From assembly GCA_965116885.1 (NCBI GenBank), contig OZ220741.1, positions 5,280,001 through 5,344,000 on the forward strand: 64,000 bases of DNA, read 5' to 3'. Origin of the DNA: Candidatus Latescibacterota bacterium. GTDB taxonomy: Bacteria > Latescibacterota > UBA2968. A model generated the notes under the pieces. It was not told the origin of the DNA, did no database searches, and was given only the letters and a program-made list of their open reading frames with translations. Numbering within the stretch: the stretch's first letter is position 1; each line of letters begins with the position of its first letter. The translations under genes and the position numbers were made by a program. Positions 57,812 to 64,000 of this stretch are shown here, piece by piece.

Positions 57812-59406
57812 AAAAACCCAATATCATCGTCATTCTCGTAGATGACATGGGCTATTCGGATCTCGGCTCTTATGGTGGCGAGATCCGGACGCCCAATCTG
57901 GATCGCCTATCGGCAAATGGCCTGCGATTCACGCAAAGTTACAACTCTGCCCGCTGTTGTCCTTCGCGGGCTTCGCTGCTCACGGGCCTGTATTCCCATC
58001 AGACTGGCATCGCCAATTTTACGGGAAGAGATCAAACCGCCGAACTGGGACCAGCCTATTTGGGTCGGTTAAACAACAACTGCGTAACACTGGCCGAAGT
58101 CCTCAAAACCGCAGGCTACAGCACCTATGGCGTTGGAAAATGGCACGTTGGCGATCAAGTTAAACCAACAGACCGGGGATTTGACGAATACTACGGATTC
58201 ATCAAAGGCCACAGCGCACCGCAATGGGATCCGTCTTATTATCATCGCTATCCCGAAACTCGAACACCCGAACTCTCTTTTGATGACGATGCATACTACG
58301 CAACAGAAGCATTCAACGATTACGCCGTAGAATTTATCGAACAGGCGCAACAAAAAGACAACCCCTATTTCCTCTACCTCGCCCACTCGGCTCCGCATTT
58401 TCCCTTACATGCCCCGGCAGAAACCCGCGATTCATATCTCGACATTTACCGTCGCGGTTGGGATGTCTTGCGCCGTGAACGCTACGCGCGCCAGAAAGAA
58501 TCCGGCCTGGCAACAGAAAACTGGCAATTTACACCGCGCTCACTTGTCCCCATTGAAGAAAATGATGCCATCGCAAATGGGTACAGCGGCAAACAGAATC
58601 CCGCATGGGAGGACCTCCCCCAGGATCGACAGGAAGATCTCACCTACCGCATGGCGGTCTTTGCGGCCATGATCGAGCATATCGATCGCGGTATAGGCAG
58701 AATCATTGATCGTCTGAAAGAAACAGGAGAACTGGACAACACACTCATTCTATTTACAAGTGACAACGGCGCGTGTTACGAATGGGGACCGTTTGGATTT
58801 GACGAACGCAGCAGATTGGGCGTCACCCATCTCCACACGGGCGAGGAACTCAAAAAAATCGGTGGACCGGACACCTATCACTCTGTGGGCAGCGCGTGGT
58901 CGTGCCTGAGCAACGCGCCGCTACGCATGTACAAACACTACAACCACGAAGGCGGAAATTGCAGCCCATTCATCGCCCATTGGCCCGAAGGGATTGCGCA
59001 ACCCGACCGCTGGGTTCGCACCCCCATGCACCTGTTTGACATCATGCCGACTATATGCGAAATTACCGGAGCCGAATATCCCGAAACGCACAATGGAGAA
59101 CGCATTCACCCGCAAGAAGGGACGAGCCTCGTACCCCTATTCAACGCACAGAACCTGCCCGAACGCAGCCTGTGTTTCGATCACTTTGAAGCCAGTGCCA
59201 TACGCAGGGGAAAATGGAAATTGCTGAAGGGCAACACCCGATACCCCAACAAAAATTGGGAACTCTACGACATGGAAAAAGACCGCTGTGAAACCAGCGA
59301 TCTATCAGCAGAACATCCCAAACTGGTAAAATCACTCGAACGAGAATGGATTGAATGGGCCGTGCGGGTTAAAGTACATCCCTACCATCAGGAGGTGGCA
59401 AAATGA
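57808..59406 (+). CDS. Arylsulfatase
   Basis: PNIIVILVDDMG, CCPSRASLLTG, GKWH, SDNG, WELYD. Confidence 0.93.
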   Translation: MKKPNIIVILVDDMGYSDLGSYGGEIRTPNLDRLSANGLRFTQSYNSARCCPSRASLLTGLYSHQTGIANFTGRDQTAELGPAYLGRLNNNCVTLAEVLKTAGYSTYGVGKWHVGDQVKPTDRGFDEYYGFIKGHSAPQWDPSYYHRYPETRTPELSFDDDAYYATEAFNDYAVEFIEQAQQKDNPYFLYLAHSAPHFPLHAPAETRDSYLDIYRRGWDVLRRERYARQKESGLATENWQFTPRSLVPIEENDAIANGYSGKQNPAWEDLPQDRQEDLTYRMAVFAAMIEHIDRGIGRIIDRLKETGELDNTLILFTSDNGACYEWGPFGFDERSRLGVTHLHTGEELKKIGGPDTYHSVGSAWSCLSNAPLRMYKHYNHEGGNCSPFIAHWPEGIAQPDRWVRTPMHLFDIMPTICEITGAEYPETHNGERIHPQEGTSLVPLFNAQNLPERSLCFDHFEASAIRRGKWKLLKGNTRYPNKNWELYDMEKDRCETSDLSAEHPKLVKSLEREWIEWAVRVKVHPYHQEVAK

Positions 59407-60725
59407 GCATTACTCGATTCACCATGGAAGAAGTACGCTGTTTTGCCGAACGCCAGCAATTTGACATTCGTCCTCTGACTTTTTTGGTCGGAGAAAACAG
59501 TACTGGCAAGACAACAGCACTGGCGTGTTTTCAAGTATTGGCAAATTATTTGAAGAATGGAGAAGTTAATTTCGATGCAGATCCCTATTCAATGGGCATC
59601 TTTCGGGATATCGTCAGAAATAGCAGAAAAAAAGACAAATCTTTTAAGCTCGGATTTACTTTTGAAGGCGCTCCTGAAGATATCGAATATACTGTTGAAT
59701 TTGTTCAAAAGAAGGATGGACTTGAACCAGACGTTAAGTCCATAACAATAAAGTTCACTGACGGTGAACTCGTTTGCAATATTGAAAATGAAGCAACAAG
59801 GAGAAGCTTTCGTTTGACTTCCTTTGATCAAAAACGGAACCAATATCATATAAATTGTTCAGCAGATTTTTTGTATCGCTTTCCCTTCTCCTCTTTTCGT
59901 TTATATAGTTTTGCTCTTAGGGAAGAGCAATCCAAAGGTGAAAATGCATTGGCAAACTATTTAGAGCAAAAGGAAAAAAATGCTGGAGGGAGAAAATACC
60001 TAACGACGAAGGCCGATATATCTGTATTTAGCACATCACCGATTCGTTCACGCCCCAAACGGACCTATGATCCAACAAGGGAATTTAATGACCCCGAAGG
60101 AAGTGATGTGCCGATGCGATTGATGCGGACAGAAGCGACAAAAAAAGACAAATGGGAAACCTTGAAACAGCAATTGATTGAATTTGGTAGGGGGTCGGGA
60201 TTATTTCAGAACATCGAAATTCAAAACCTCGGTGGGTCTCTGGGATCTCCATTCCAACTTAAAGTCAAGGTGAGAGGTCCCAATTCCAATATCGTTGATG
60301 TCGGATACGGAGTCAGCCAAATTTTACCGATTCTGGTGCATATCTTGGATTCTGATATTTCTCGTTCGCGTTTCTATAGAAAAGTAGGAATGGATTTCTT
60401 CTTACTACAACAACCTGAAGTCCATCTGCATCCAAAGGCACAAGCCCAACTCTCTTCTTTACTATCTACATTAGCGAGCCAAGGCGGACAGTCTTTCATC
60501 GTCGAAACACATAGCGACTACATGATTGACCGCGCACGCATTGAAATTATGAAAGGCACTATCGAACCTGAAGATGTGTCTTTGATATATTTAGAACCCA
60601 AGGGACGCGTTGTCAATGTACATAATATCAGCTTTGACAATATGGGTAATATGACTGGTGTACCAGCGCATTACAGAGGATTTTTCTTAAAAGAAACTGA
60701 CCGGTTACTTGGTTTTGAGGATTAA
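59403..60725 (+). CDS. ABC-type (AAA_15/AAA_21, DUF3696-like) ATPase, non-transport
   Basis: Walker A GENSTGKT, signature-like VGYGVSQ, Walker B/D-loop LLQQPEVHLHP, H-loop VETHS; no TM partner. Confidence 0.85.
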   Translation: MSITRFTMEEVRCFAERQQFDIRPLTFLVGENSTGKTTALACFQVLANYLKNGEVNFDADPYSMGIFRDIVRNSRKKDKSFKLGFTFEGAPEDIEYTVEFVQKKDGLEPDVKSITIKFTDGELVCNIENEATRRSFRLTSFDQKRNQYHINCSADFLYRFPFSSFRLYSFALREEQSKGENALANYLEQKEKNAGGRKYLTTKADISVFSTSPIRSRPKRTYDPTREFNDPEGSDVPMRLMRTEATKKDKWETLKQQLIEFGRGSGLFQNIEIQNLGGSLGSPFQLKVKVRGPNSNIVDVGYGVSQILPILVHILDSDISRSRFYRKVGMDFFLLQQPEVHLHPKAQAQLSSLLSTLASQGGQSFIVETHSDYMIDRARIEIMKGTIEPEDVSLIYLEPKGRVVNVHNISFDNMGNMTGVPAHYRGFFLKETDRLLGFED

Positions 60726-60728
60726 ATT

Positions 60729-61217
60729 ATGTGTGCCATTCTCGATACTAATTGCTTTAATAAATTTAAGAATCCAGCCGATGAGGATATGAAGCCTGTG
60801 CGGAATTGGTTGAAAAACAAAAAGGGCAAAATAGCGTACTCCAATACCAACAAATTTGACAGGGAATGGGAGGATGGGGGAATGAAAGATCAAATGAAGG
60901 AACTAAGTCGAGCTGGTCAACTTAAACGGTTTTGCGCTAAAGAGGTAGAAAAAAAAGAGAATGAACTAGCGAATGAACAAAAAGAAGAAATAAAATCCGA
61001 TGATCTGCATATTATAGCATTAGCTATGATAGCAAATGTAAAAGTGTTAATTGTCCAAAACCTCTCTGACATCCCAAAGGAAGAAGAAAATAAAAAAAAG
61101 AGAGACTCAAGAGGCGCTGACCCAAAACTACAGGCAGATTTTAAGAATCTGGTTGGTGGCAAAGTGTACATGACAAAATCACATTCACATTTGCTAAAAA
61201 AAGATACCTGTCCTTAA
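60729..61217 (+). CDS. PIN-like domain protein
   Basis: AILDTN first strand, KSDDLHIIALA, later ADPKL; starts 3 nt after the ATPase stop. Confidence 0.6.
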   Translation: MCAILDTNCFNKFKNPADEDMKPVRNWLKNKKGKIAYSNTNKFDREWEDGGMKDQMKELSRAGQLKRFCAKEVEKKENELANEQKEEIKSDDLHIIALAMIANVKVLIVQNLSDIPKEEENKKKRDSRGADPKLQADFKNLVGGKVYMTKSHSHLLKKDTCP

Positions 61218-61255: not shown

Positions 61256-61285
61256 TTGACCAAACGGCAAAGAAATACCTATGAT
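61256..61285 (+). promoter_or_regulatory. Putative sigma70 promoter (TTGACC-N18-TATGAT)
   Basis: Read directly; suggests the real start is ATG 61343 after GGAGA. Confidence 0.5.
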
Positions 61286-61342
61286 AGTGCAAATTCAAGA
61301 GTTCTACTTATGTCACAACAAATCAACATTTTCGGAGATAAT

Positions 61343-62305
61343 ATGCAGGATTTGGAGAGTATTCTGCTCAATGCGATTAGCCGAGAAGGAGGCAAGACTG
61401 TCAACAGAGAAATCATTTGGTTTCCCAAGCCGTCAACCGATTTAAAGGATATGAGGGATAAGTTAAAGATCGCTATGATTCAGCAGCAAGCTCTCGGATT
61501 TTTTCGGGAAAATGACGTTGCAAACAAACTGGTCAACGCCGGTGCCCTGACCAGAGGTGTCTTATCTCCTCAAGATATTATTGACCAATACCAAGGGGAA
61601 ACAACGGCAAATCGGCCACAGATTAGTAGCTTCAGGATGCAAAACAGGATATTTCGTTTCTTTGGATGGACTGAGCGAGTAGTAGATCAAGCCAACGCAT
61701 ACCGAGTAACTCAACTCGGAGAGCAGATATCGAAATTCACTGGAGATTTTCCCGGTCAGATAGGTAATCTCAATGAGCGTAATCTCGTAATCGAATCATT
61801 GATGAACTTCTCATTTTTTTCAGTAAATGATGAACTCAGATACTGGGATGGACGGTTCAGACAACGACTTTTCCTCAATATAATTCGTATGGCTTCAATC
61901 TACGGCTACATTACCAACAATGAACTGGTCGTTACAGCATTTGCTTTGAAAGATGATCGGGACCAAACACAGATTGACGAAATAGTTGACAGGCTCTACC
62001 GTCTCCATAACGAAGAAGTCACAATGCCTGAAGCCTATGCAGAAGTTAGCATTGACCCATATAATAGATCCGCTGTAAAAAGCGCCTATGATAGCCCAAA
62101 GGTCGCCCTCTCTCTTTGCAGACAAGCCGGACTTCTCGAAGCCAAAAACATTACTAATAATAATCTCTCCAAATTCTACAAACAAATGCATCAACCACGC
62201 ACCCAACTTTCCACACCCCGAGTCGCCAATTGCATCACGCCATTGGGAAAGAAAGTTTTAGACAGTGAGATAACCAAAATTAGCGTTTGGTTTGATGAGT
62301 TATGA
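61343..62305 (+). CDS. Hypothetical protein resembling winged-helix DNA-recognition modules of type IIS (AlwI/FokI-like) endonucleases
   Basis: RIFRFFGW..YRVTQLG wing, LFLNIIRMASIYGYITNNEL helix, second ITPLG wing; no catalytic motif seen. Confidence 0.45.
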   Translation: MQDLESILLNAISREGGKTVNREIIWFPKPSTDLKDMRDKLKIAMIQQQALGFFRENDVANKLVNAGALTRGVLSPQDIIDQYQGETTANRPQISSFRMQNRIFRFFGWTERVVDQANAYRVTQLGEQISKFTGDFPGQIGNLNERNLVIESLMNFSFFSVNDELRYWDGRFRQRLFLNIIRMASIYGYITNNELVVTAFALKDDRDQTQIDEIVDRLYRLHNEEVTMPEAYAEVSIDPYNRSAVKSAYDSPKVALSLCRQAGLLEAKNITNNNLSKFYKQMHQPRTQLSTPRVANCITPLGKKVLDSEITKISVWFDEL

Positions 62306-63771
62306 TAAAAGAAAAAATACGCCGATGTGCATTGCTTCTTGCACTACAAGAAACAAATGAGGAAGGAATAGACTCCACCATTCTCGAAAAAGTTTTACCC
62401 GAATGGAGAGAGGACATAATAGCATTACAGAATGCTGAAATCTCCATCAACGTTGAGAATGGTATAGTATCTCTCGGCACACCTGTTGCTTTCACCCTTC
62501 ACCATTCTGTTCCTCCAGAAATCAGAAATCCTGTAAGGGACCTTCTTTATCGTATTATCGATGAGAAAGACGTTGTAAATCCAAATGAAATCAATGAATT
62601 TTTCTATCGCATCAATCCGCACTATTTGAACACCCTTCTTACATCTGACCAAAAAATAAAAAGCGAACCTCTGTACAAGACATCTGATTCATCAGCGCAA
62701 CCTACTCTGAAATGTATCCACTGCGCCGATGCTCCTTGCTATACATATGCAGAAGCAGATACATTCGGTTCAAGTGATAAATCCCCAACGCAAGTCTGTC
62801 CGGATAATCTGGTGAATAAGAAGACTGACGGTCACATATCCATTCAAGTAGAACGATGCACTGGTTGTATGCTCTGTATATTGCGCTGCCCCCTTAATGC
62901 TATCTCTTGGAAGAATGGTGTCGCCTCTAAACACGAGTATGAAGTAGATGAACCTGTTGAAAAACTCTACATTTTGCCTGAAACAAAGGCATCCCTTACA
63001 ATGGAGACATTTCAAATAATTCAGGAATTCGACCTGCCTCTTGCTTACTATGACGATATGAAGAATATACTGGACAATTTTGACAAAAAAGTTGGTCGTG
63101 TAAAATTCAATTGGAATAAAGATCAATACTATCCATTTATCCGGAATTGTTTTCGATTACTGGGACTCAATGCATTATATACAGGTTCTGGCGGGAAATT
63201 AAAACGCTCCGACATCACTATTGATGACCTATTTATGGTTGGTATTGAGGTGAAAAGTCCAGCAGAAGGCCGCATTTCTAAGGAAGCCGTGCGGCAAGCA
63301 TTTGATGCAAGTATTGAGGTGGTAAAGGACAACAAAGATGTCTATTGTGCTGCCATAGGACAAGAATTTACAAGAGGTGTACAAAAACACGCTGAGAGCT
63401 ACTACAAAAGGCACAGGATTTCAATTCCTTTAATCCCAGGTCGCTTTATTCTTTACCTTACTTTGAAACACCAGGATTTTCCGCAGAGTAAACAATACGA
63501 CCTTACCCGTCTTTTCTCACTTGTGGGTGAAGTCTGGACAGACAAGATTCAACAGTATTTTATCGAATACTTCGACATAAGAATAGCGGTACTAAAAAAA
63601 GGAGTGCCGCCTGATGAATTGATAGAAAATTGCCCTTACCAAATCAGGGAATTACTGATAGAAGGGAACTATGAGAGTGCAACGGTGCTATTAGAAGAGC
63701 AAAAAAGGGAAATTTTAGAAGAGATAGGGAGATGTTTTCCACCACCACGCCGCACTGCAAGAGGGCGTTAA
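62302..63771 (+). CDS. Putative restriction endonuclease: 2x[4Fe-4S] ferredoxin domain + PD-(D/E)xK nuclease domain
   Basis: CIHCADAPC..VCP and CTGCMLCILRCP; RSDITI..GIEVKSP..EAVRQA; ATGA overlap with the upstream gene. Confidence 0.65.
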   Translation: MIKEKIRRCALLLALQETNEEGIDSTILEKVLPEWREDIIALQNAEISINVENGIVSLGTPVAFTLHHSVPPEIRNPVRDLLYRIIDEKDVVNPNEINEFFYRINPHYLNTLLTSDQKIKSEPLYKTSDSSAQPTLKCIHCADAPCYTYAEADTFGSSDKSPTQVCPDNLVNKKTDGHISIQVERCTGCMLCILRCPLNAISWKNGVASKHEYEVDEPVEKLYILPETKASLTMETFQIIQEFDLPLAYYDDMKNILDNFDKKVGRVKFNWNKDQYYPFIRNCFRLLGLNALYTGSGGKLKRSDITIDDLFMVGIEVKSPAEGRISKEAVRQAFDASIEVVKDNKDVYCAAIGQEFTRGVQKHAESYYKRHRISIPLIPGRFILYLTLKHQDFPQSKQYDLTRLFSLVGEVWTDKIQQYFIEYFDIRIAVLKKGVPPDELIENCPYQIRELLIEGNYESATVLLEEQKREILEEIGRCFPPPRRTARGR

Positions 63772-63781
63772 AGAGTTCTGT

Positions 63782-64000
63782 TTATTGGGATGTAAGAGGA
63801 GTTGCTAGCGACAATTGCGGTTCCTTGGTTCTCCAATCCAAAATACGCTTTTGTGAAATCTCTATGTATTGCTCGTTTAATTCATAACCGATATACCGCC
63901 TGTTGTGTATTAGTGCCGCCAAACACTCTGTGCCGCTACCGGCGAAGGGTACGAGCACAACGTCATTTTCATTTGAAAAATGTTTAATGATACGTTCGGT
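63782..64000 (-). CDS. Site-specific DNA amino-methyltransferase (N4-C/N6-A, beta-class), C-terminal part; not in the ORF track
   Basis: Hand translation: TERIIKHFSNENDVVLVPFAGSGTECLAALIHNRRYIGYELNEQYIEISQKRI..SQ*; motif I FAGSGT and motif II YIGYE near the C-terminus. Confidence 0.88.
   Translation of the reverse strand, partial: TERIIKHFSNENDVVLVPFAGSGTECLAALIHNRRYIGYELNEQYIEISQKRILDWRTKEPQLSLATPLTSQ

Follow-up and report, generated by a model that had tools for sequence, protein, structure and literature searches.

We analysed a window of 64,000 nucleotides from a Candidatus Latescibacterota bacterium (GTDB lineage UBA2968; assembly GCA_965116885.1, contig OZ220741.1, positions 5,280,001 to 5,344,000 of the forward strand). 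All positions below are counted from the first letter of this window, and window-equivalent positions continue the count past its end. At the end of the window lie two overlapping genes, A and B, which are met from the opposite strand by a DNA methyltransferase gene, M1, and, just outside the window, by a second one, M2. This locus is very probably a type IIS restriction-modification (R-M) system of a new architectural variant. As for the explanation as a whole, we consider it probable that this is a type IIS R-M system whose endonuclease, of the FokI/BspD6I type, is split into two polypeptides and carries an iron-sulfur (Fe-S) domain as a structural bridge. A two-subunit, type IIS-like enzyme with a separate recognition subunit had already been proposed in an initial annotation made from the letters of the DNA, and the proposal is supported by fold matches, by natural fusions of A with B, by a predicted complex of the two proteins, and by linkage to two methylases in most related loci.

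Folds of the two subunits

Models of A and B were predicted with AF2 from family alignments, and were compared with solved structures by VIA, from which the Z scores below are taken, and by Foldseek. The model of A (predicted local distance difference test, pLDDT, 82.8) aligns over residues 18–318 with residues 2–280 of Nt.BspD6I (Z 16.8, root-mean-square deviation (rmsd) 3.3 Å, 234 residues aligned), and further with the recognition domain of BpuJI (Z 12.8, rmsd 3.9 Å, 234 aligned) and with residues 9–377 of FokI (Z 12.2, rmsd 4.1 Å, 212 aligned). Foldseek also pairs A with Nt.BspD6I (E 3.2e-05). At the level of sequence, A has no match in Pfam (E<=0.1), NCBIfam or PADLOC, and phmmer finds none for it among PDB sequences. 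Judging from its modelled fold, A is predicted to be the sequence-reading half of a FokI/BspD6I-type enzyme, with tandem winged helices like those of FokI D1-D2.

The model of B (pLDDT 85.7) continues where A leaves off in the FokI order of modules. FokI is the best Foldseek match for B, and residues 1–412 of B align with FokI residues 303–578, which comprise D3 and the cleavage domain (Z 13.3, 222 aligned), at an rmsd of 14.7 Å that is explained by differently oriented domains. The first 61 residues of B also match ScpB-like winged helices (Z 6.8). Taken by itself, the nuclease part aligns with Nt.BspD6I residues 378–604 (Z 11.4, rmsd 3.7 Å, 170 aligned) and with the small subunit of R.BspD6I (2p14; Z 10.8, rmsd 3.5 Å, 158 of 186 aligned). 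In the secondary structure assigned to the model by DSSP, D304 lies just before a strand (305–308), E316 and K318 lie within the next one (312–318), and R331/Q332 fall in the helix that follows, a placement that in the model has the canonical PD-(D/E)xK layout.

These positions are strongly conserved. In an alignment of 77 rows, made up of 33 open reading frames (ORFs) from related loci and 44 database clusters (sets that overlap, so that counts of rows are not independent), D304, E316 and K318 are all kept in 76 rows, and the one left over is truncated. With R331 and Q332 added, 75 of 77 rows keep all five, the exceptions being a truncated row and one with Q changed to K. The initial annotation had described the motif as SD-x10-EVK followed by AVRQA, and had read it as a PD-(D/E)xK core of the Mrr-like kind whose conservation and modelled geometry would decide the matter. 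Conservation and modelled strands both agree with a nuclease site, and the residues are all present (S303-D304, E316-V-K318, A329-V-R331-Q332-A), although D304 and E316 are separated by 11 residues rather than 10. The PD-(D/E)xK assignment stands; the Mrr-like label is too specific, as Pfam Mrr_cat (PF04471) has no match in B at E<=0.1 and the core is FokI/BspD6I-like.

Sequence libraries are silent on this nuclease domain. Neither A nor B matches the Pfam models FokI_cleav_dom and FokI_D3 at E<=0.1, B receiving only Fer4-type matches, and both are likewise unmatched by RE_AlwI (PF09491) at that threshold. Searched against PDB sequences with phmmer, B finds ferredoxin-type chains only and no nuclease; a profile of the nuclease domain finds one chance-level match (E 0.71) in the same sequences, and searches with the distant relatives P0109 and P0118 find nothing relevant. 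In a cluster look-up of 10 members, the public names in the B family are only “hypothetical protein” and “4Fe-4S binding protein”. An Atlas look-up, which provides leads only, returned clusters of a 317–352-residue “4Fe-4S binding protein family” at 0.84–0.87 and, weakly, a FokI D3/cleavage cluster at 0.78.

Predicted complex of A and B

A complex of full-length A, full-length B and two clusters was predicted with a score of 0.83, against 0.01 for the best of three controls. In calibration, 116 of 157 solved complexes attain this mark, as do 2 of 215 mismatched pairs; the present job used custom alignments and ligands, unlike the calibration. Three runs have at least 93% of contacts in common, with a partner pLDDT of at least 82. 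In the modelled interface, residues 1–12, 41–47, 60–75 and 90–97 of B face residues 108–162 of A and its C-terminal strand (309–320), and the conserved SVPPEIR motif of B, including the invariant P71/P72/E73 region, is set against the WFDEL strand at the C-terminus of A. The ferredoxin-type domain of B takes part as well through residues 148–176, which lie within the loop from the third to the fourth cysteine, a loop of unusual length, and directly behind it.

The ferredoxin-type domain

Between its D3-like winged helix and its cleavage domain, at the position of FokI's short linker, B has a ferredoxin-type domain with eight cysteines in the pattern C138-x2-C141-x4-C146...C166-P and C186-x2-C189-x2-C192-x3-C196-P. 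The initial annotation had reported this pattern (CxxCxxxxC..CP plus CxxCxxCxxxCP) and it is present from C138 to C196. All eight cysteines are kept in 65 of the 77 rows; of the other 12, seven are cut short in this part of the protein and five are without seven or eight of the cysteines. Retention reaches down to 26–30% identity. Pfam Fer4 (PF00037) matches the domain with 24.2 bits, above its gathering cut-off of 21.1, and the best PDB sequence matches of B are ferredoxin-type subunits. A match of this kind together with cysteine conservation on this scale is more than chance, as far as sequence can tell, and the domain should bind two [4Fe-4S] clusters. It had been labelled a dicluster ferredoxin of the respiratory DmsB/NrfC type, which says too much of a putative, generic two-cluster ferredoxin domain: the NCBIfam models of respiratory subunits stay far under their cut-offs (DMSO_dmsB 21.7 vs 214.1, DsrO 27.2 vs 200, FDH3_beta 29.7 vs 240), and models of respiratory Fe-S subunits match only one ferredoxin unit in B.

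Methylases linked to A and B

The sequence of M1 (268 residues) matches PF01555 with 192.9 bits and has VVADPPY at residues 28–34 and FAGSGT near its C-terminus, so that motif IV precedes motif I. By these motifs M1 is a predicted beta-class N6_N4 methyltransferase, in agreement with the beta-class amino-methyltransferase (FxGxG) that had been expected next to B; what had not been foreseen is that there are two methylases and not one, the second lying just outside the window. M2 (289 residues; PF01555, 89.6 bits) has DPFVGVGST before TSPPY. Motif order is permuted in the two methylases. Going by the usual motif rules, we take M1 (DPPY) to be an adenine enzyme and M2 (SPPY) to be a cytosine enzyme.

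The linkage recurs across the family. We examined 34 loci with B: the present one, four from named genomes and 29 from metagenomes. Two N6_N4 methyltransferases, namely an M2 orthologue plus either M1 or an alternative of 367–388 residues, are found in 24 of them, and these include all four loci from named genomes, which are labelled Bathyarchaeia, Parcubacteria, Gammaproteobacteria and Poribacteria and so cover archaea and three bacterial phyla. Two further loci have one methylase, which is cut by the contig end, one has M2 in broken frames, and seven have none.

A variant of M2 was observed in three loci, all on the minus strand: in L025 (5448–6956), L027 (3616–5295) and L028 (3712–5250) the methylase is 502–559 residues long, and in L025, the one that was scanned with Pfam, it carries a LexA DNA-binding domain at the N-terminus and an S24 self-cleaving peptidase. 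Fusion of a methylase to an SOS-type repressor suggests, at the level of domains, a damage-coupled control of this R-M family.

Relatives, fusions and loss of cysteines

The B family is small, with 44 clusters among 5.8 billion sequences, and includes proteins of about 720–740 residues whose N-terminal halves align with A. Such natural fusions, for which the initial annotation had suggested looking alongside methylase linkage, are common: A and B form a single ORF in 15 of the 34 loci (one of these cut at its 5' end), with 707-residue forms in L005, L030 and L031, and the fused forms keep the FokI module order of D1-D2, D3 and nuclease. In 11 of the 34 loci A is directly upstream of B, cut by the contig end in three; in L022 and L023 the fused gene is broken into two frames, and four loci have a B that is either fragmented or incomplete at the 5' end.

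Some copies appear damaged. L009 (1–3556) and L010 (1–5921) have a 2041-base stretch in common at 100% identity and represent one element seen twice, in which an intact Fe-S gene B stands behind only the last 33 codons of A, and where a methylase was not found within 1.7 kb upstream or 4.2 kb downstream; it looks like a decaying or rearranged copy. In L035 (1–4797) the matches to gene A and M2 are scattered over broken frames, which could stem from decay of the copy, from faulty assembly or from a different genetic code.

Beyond the family proper, the nuclease-domain profile, run against 1.84 billion representatives, finds 176 proteins at E<=0.001, of which 37 also pass E<=1e-10. Pfam was run on 72 of the 150 hits listed: 24 of these carry Fer4-type matches directly N-terminal to the nuclease domain, and none matches a restriction-enzyme family, RE_AlwI included (E<=0.001). 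This wider set contains more distant fused forms of 731–800 residues, short ferredoxin-nuclease proteins of 311–330 residues together with their Fe-S-free relatives of 196–210 residues, to which they are 42–58% identical over the nuclease part, and Fe-S-free proteins of about 560–580 residues with the motif IEIKSP..E...VRQA and an A-like N-terminus. The viral contigs searched held no relative of B.

A quick tree was built on 82 rows; 11 partial rows were omitted, and of the hits weaker than P0106 only eight were admitted, as outgroups. In this tree the B studied here belongs to a clade of 33 rows in which the Fe-S enzyme is split (Shimodaira-Hasegawa-like approximate likelihood ratio test, SH-aLRT, 98), and the fused forms surround this clade. 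The C-terminal helical extension of B is present in the split Fe-S clade and not in fused or Cys-less forms, and the near-invariant C478 is kept in the split clade only.

The tree also has two separate clades without the cysteines (support 97 and 91). Members that are losing the Fe-S site are P0085, P0096, P0038–P0041, P0089–P0091 and, among the loci, L020 (3672–4934). In one clade decay is stepwise, in a graded series of four, two, one and no cysteines, and the length of the domain is kept (four cysteines in P0085, two in P0096, one in P0038); in the other clade half of the ferredoxin domain is deleted, namely its second half in P0090 and P0091. One Cys-less locus, L020, still has A, B and two methylases. 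Because the Cys-less clades keep the nuclease motif, the clusters are not essential to the cleavage chemistry.

Gene layout and genomic context

The layout reported in the initial annotation, with an ORF at 62302–63771, an ATGA overlap, and a 10-bp gap to a convergent minus-strand ORF containing VLVPFAGSGT and YIGYE, is present in full (Table 1). The ATG of B at 62302 overlaps the TGA of A at 62303–62305, and both reading frames are intact. The TAA of B occupies 63769–63771, and 10 bases on is the stop of the M1 ORF (63782–63784), which runs on the minus strand beyond the end of the window; both methylase genes are convergent to B.

Gene A, for which 320 residues had been given, is there, and its start is where we differ. 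Its longest ORF (61256–62305) opens at TTG 61256. The ATG at 61343, which yields the 320-residue form, is preceded by GGAGA 6 nucleotides upstream. Close homologues of A begin MSQQIN or MKKQAN, and one of them is without the internal methionine from which a 320-residue form would start, so the ATG at 61310 (331 residues) is more likely to be the start. The promoter that had been assigned to A is a candidate only: it comes down to a single match at 10 of 12 positions (61256–61285), and the region shows no excess of such sigma-70-like matches (7 observed vs 10.4 expected).

Table 1. Features of the A-B locus, in positions of the window
Feature	Position	Strand	Remarks
Sigma-70-like promoter candidate TTGACC-18-TATGAT	61256..61285	+	10/12 positions match; upstream of gene A
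Gene A, putative recognition subunit, ~331 residues	61310..62305	+	Fold matches to FokI/Nt.BspD6I/BpuJI; alternative start 61343 (320 residues)
Gene B, 489 residues	62302..63771	+	Intact ORF
B residues 1–115, N-terminal winged helix, predicted FokI D3 equivalent	62302..62646	+	Fold match; SVPPEIR motif at residues 69–75
B residues 135–225, predicted two-cluster [4Fe-4S] ferredoxin-type domain	62704..62976	+	Fer4 match and eight Cys
B residues 226–412, predicted PD-(D/E)xK cleavage domain	62977..63537	+	FokI/BspD6I-type fold and conserved motif
Catalytic candidate D304	63211..63213	+	
Catalytic candidate E316	63247..63249	+	
Catalytic candidate K318	63253..63255	+	Then R331-Q332 helix
B residues 413–489, C-terminal helical extension	63538..63771	+	Helices 413–478; conserved CFPxPxRxARG tail at end
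M1 methylase, 3' part	63782..64000	-	Full gene 268 residues, to window-equivalent 64588; PF01555
M2 methylase, 289 residues	window-equivalent 64572–65441		Outside the window; PF01555

The locus sits in a stretch of low G+C content, which drops from roughly 50–55% to 37–44% from about 59,400 to the window end and stays low for about 3.5 kb past it. This stretch contains an AAA_15/NsnB-like ATPase gene, a 162-residue ORF, A, B, the two N6_N4 methyltransferases, and a SMODS and S_4TM pair. No B was found in the 60 related genomes searched, 20 of them from the same genus. The low G+C content and the lack of B in these relatives fit a mobile defence island, and for the same two reasons there has probably been little time for recognition sites to be removed from the host genome. 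The host genome encodes a haem-copper oxidase (COX1 was found); cytochrome bd was looked for in it and not found.

Among the neighbours, the ATPase gene (59403–60725; AAA_15) resembles PADLOC NsnB (1.1e-40) and PDC-M55A (4.8e-39), and its start overlaps the stop of a sulfatase gene by 4 bases. The 162-residue ORF 3' of it (60729–61217) has a weak match to a PIN family (NF046100, E 0.0017). This ORF was considered as a second nuclease subunit and rejected, as it escapes the nuclease profile at a threshold as loose as E 10 and the related loci have no such gene; a link with the ATPase is more likely, and the two genes (59403–61217) are probably a separate two-gene defence candidate within the same island. 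Directly after M2, on the minus strand at window-equivalent 65416–67406, come a SMODS nucleotidyltransferase (335 residues) and an S_4TM effector (308 residues; PF18159, 298 bits), a putative minimal pair resembling a cyclic-oligonucleotide-based antiphage signalling system. By gene content, the island thus stacks three defence candidates. In the 18-kb region, only one ORF, that of B, matches the nuclease profile.

Proposed mechanism and its alternatives

In the mechanism that we propose, A would read an asymmetric site, and B would dock on A by means of its D3-like winged helix and the loop of its ferredoxin-type domain. Two cleavage domains of B would then pair in the manner of FokI and make a double-strand cut at a distance, pairing being needed because the locus has a single nuclease-domain gene. 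M1 and M2 would presumably each protect one strand of the asymmetric site. The Fe-S domain, stabilised by its clusters, may bridge the two subunits and hold the cleavage domain in position against the recognition subunit, in which case assembly and activity would depend on cluster loading. Of the roles open to this domain, a structural bridge between subunits is the most likely and the one that we favour, since the domain replaces the FokI linker, contacts A in the model, and belongs to a family in which lineages lose the cysteines yet keep the system. The persistence of the system in lineages without the cysteines also rules out a part for the clusters in catalysis.

Several observations weigh against this explanation or reduce the force of its evidence. 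Neither A nor B is recognised by a restriction-enzyme model of Pfam, NCBIfam or PADLOC and, given that the PDB sequences yield no nuclease match either, the nuclease assignment rests on predicted folds and motif conservation. The predicted complex may stem from what the model has learned of FokI and Nt.BspD6I, in which both parts are in one chain, and its score was obtained with inputs unlike those of the calibration. For the ferredoxin-type domain, the Pfam dicluster models stay below their cut-offs (Fer4_9 24.6 vs 27, Fer4_21 24.7 vs 35), and structural similarity of B residues ~98–245 to HycB, PsrB and ArrB is only middling (Z 6.6–6.9, rmsd 3.4–3.7 Å, 94–109 aligned). Two clades do without the cysteines and retain the nuclease motif, a loss that fits a structural role and equally fits a dispensable regulator. 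The 34 loci include near-duplicates (L009/L010, L022/L023, L033/L034), so that counts of loci, like those of the overlapping alignment rows, are not independent. Lastly, 7 of the 34 loci show no methylase. Four of the seven (L011, L012, L017 and L026) have less than 1.4 kb of sequence beyond B and L018 is without its upstream side, and the remaining two, L009 and L010, are the single degraded element described above.

The facts that argue for a structural bridge allow a dispensable regulatory switch too, and this is favoured somewhat by the strict retention of the eight cysteines, by the fusions of LexA to the methylase (L025, L027, L028), and by the oxygen-respiring host. That the redox state or the integrity of the clusters, through oxygen, oxidants, iron supply or electrons arriving via DNA, decides the release of the cleavage domain seems to us rather unlikely. 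We also hold it unlikely that the enzyme is the same as proposed above and has its clusters as a sensor, with oxidation, oxygen, nitric oxide or iron starvation switching restriction off or on, by which self-restriction could be relieved under stress or defence tied to the physiological state. Such a sensor would make sense of cysteines that are strictly kept in 65 of 77 rows from archaea and bacteria alike, and would be well placed at the linker, the element that controls release of the cleavage domain in FokI. The three loci in which M2 is joined to a LexA-type repressor and its self-cleaving peptidase indicate that the family does use stress-coupled control, and the haem-copper oxidase of the host implies that the enzyme meets oxygen. 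Yet none of the computed results speaks to redox behaviour, the system persists in two clades whose cysteines are gone, and ferredoxin-type domains are purely structural in ABCE1 and in subunit D of the archaeal RNA polymerase.

It is very unlikely that A and B do not form a classical restriction enzyme, and are instead a nuclease that nicks DNA, acts in repair or depends on modification, or else the remains of a system that is kept only for its methylases. What prompts the thought is that the 18 kb contain a single nuclease-domain gene, whereas R.BspD6I needs a second subunit, and that the closest fold to a large subunit, that of Nt.BspD6I, is by its PDB titles a nickase on its own; the element with a truncated A and no methylase nearby (L009/L010) is related as well. 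FokI, however, also has a single nuclease domain and cuts both strands by pairing. In addition, at the locus itself both frames are intact and all catalytic and cysteine positions are kept, and linkage to two methylases is the signature of restriction at unmethylated sites.

Least probable of all, and by a wide measure improbable, is a part for the clusters in DNA-mediated charge transport, whereby they would detect from afar whether DNA is intact or modified, or signal between enzymes at two sites before cutting: a two-cluster ferredoxin domain is by design an electron wire, and the complex model does set residues 148–176 against the DNA-reading subunit, but none of the results points to redox chemistry, to a redox partner or to contact with DNA, basic residues do not stand out in the domain, and natural members without the cysteines exist.

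Comparison with known enzymes

Having weighed these alternatives, we compare the split enzyme with a structural Fe-S bridge to its nearest known counterparts. The locus differs from the Pfam families of FokI and R.BspD6I at the level of sequence, and is predicted to work like these enzymes. With FokI (PDB 1fok, 2fok) it has in common the order of modules, from tandem winged helices through D3 to a C-terminal PD-(D/E)xK domain, and one nuclease domain per recognition module. Unlike FokI, the A/B enzyme is divided between D2 and D3 into two polypeptides, has a domain of about 90 residues with eight cysteines in place of FokI's short linker between D3 and the cleavage domain, carries an additional helical tail at the C-terminus of B, and gives no sequence match to the Pfam FokI models. 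Its two methylases are separate, whereas that of FokI is a single fused two-domain protein.

R.BspD6I/Nt.BspD6I, of the AlwI/PleI/MlyI group (2ewf, 5liq, 2p14), is similarly a two-polypeptide enzyme and provides the best fold matches for A and for the nuclease domain of B. The division of labour is different: the large subunit of BspD6I combines recognition with a nuclease domain of its own, a second nuclease being supplied by the small subunit, whereas the split between A and B parts recognition from the sole nuclease domain, with no second nuclease ORF in the 18 kb. BspD6I is not known to carry an Fe-S domain, none being named in its PDB titles, and RE_AlwI finds no match here.

Fe-S clusters are better known from other PD-(D/E)xK nucleases. 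In AddB, Cas4 and Dna2/Bad a single cluster is held by four cysteines as an “iron staple” that wraps the nuclease domain itself, whereas B has a separate eight-Cys domain of ferredoxin fold N-terminal to the nuclease; moreover, those enzymes act in repair or CRISPR adaptation and not in restriction-modification. What they have in common with B is the pairing of a PD-(D/E)xK nuclease with [4Fe-4S], the cluster being generally regarded as structural (cf. PMC5704561 and PMC7430649).

An analogy for the domain as such may be sought among proteins that handle nucleic acids in other ways. RLI, for example, is among the weak library and PDB sequence matches of B. Both ABCE1/RLI and subunit D of the archaeal RNA polymerase contain a domain of the bacterial-ferredoxin type without a known redox reaction. 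Subunit D, moreover, has lost its cysteines in certain lineages, much as B has in two clades, although the host proteins are unrelated and the likeness is one of analogy only.

In the open full-text literature, which leaves most subscription journals uncovered, we found no restriction endonuclease with an Fe-S or ferredoxin domain, in keeping with the statement of the initial annotation that no characterised restriction enzyme with such a domain was known. The passages that did match deal with DndC, PAPS reductases and ParA proteins.

Significance of the family

An Fe-S cofactor in a restriction enzyme is thus something for which we found no description in that literature, and it is of interest where it occurs, in that the eight-Cys domain of ferredoxin type sits at the hinge between reading DNA and cutting it. 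Since Pfam, NCBIfam and PADLOC do not see the nuclease genes, loci of this kind are scored as orphan methylases. The enzymes may represent new type IIS specificities. They may also need anaerobic handling, which, as a speculation, could explain why none has been characterised.

Whether Fe-S clusters in nucleic-acid enzymes act as scaffold, sensor or electron wire is a long-standing question, and this family offers a simple readout for it in site-specific cleavage and phage restriction. It also comes with natural controls, namely single-chain and split versions, two clades without the cysteines, and relatives that are free of Fe-S. If the switch reading were true, this would be the first restriction enzyme to be gated by an Fe-S cofactor, and a simple model for the role of Fe-S in DNA enzymes.

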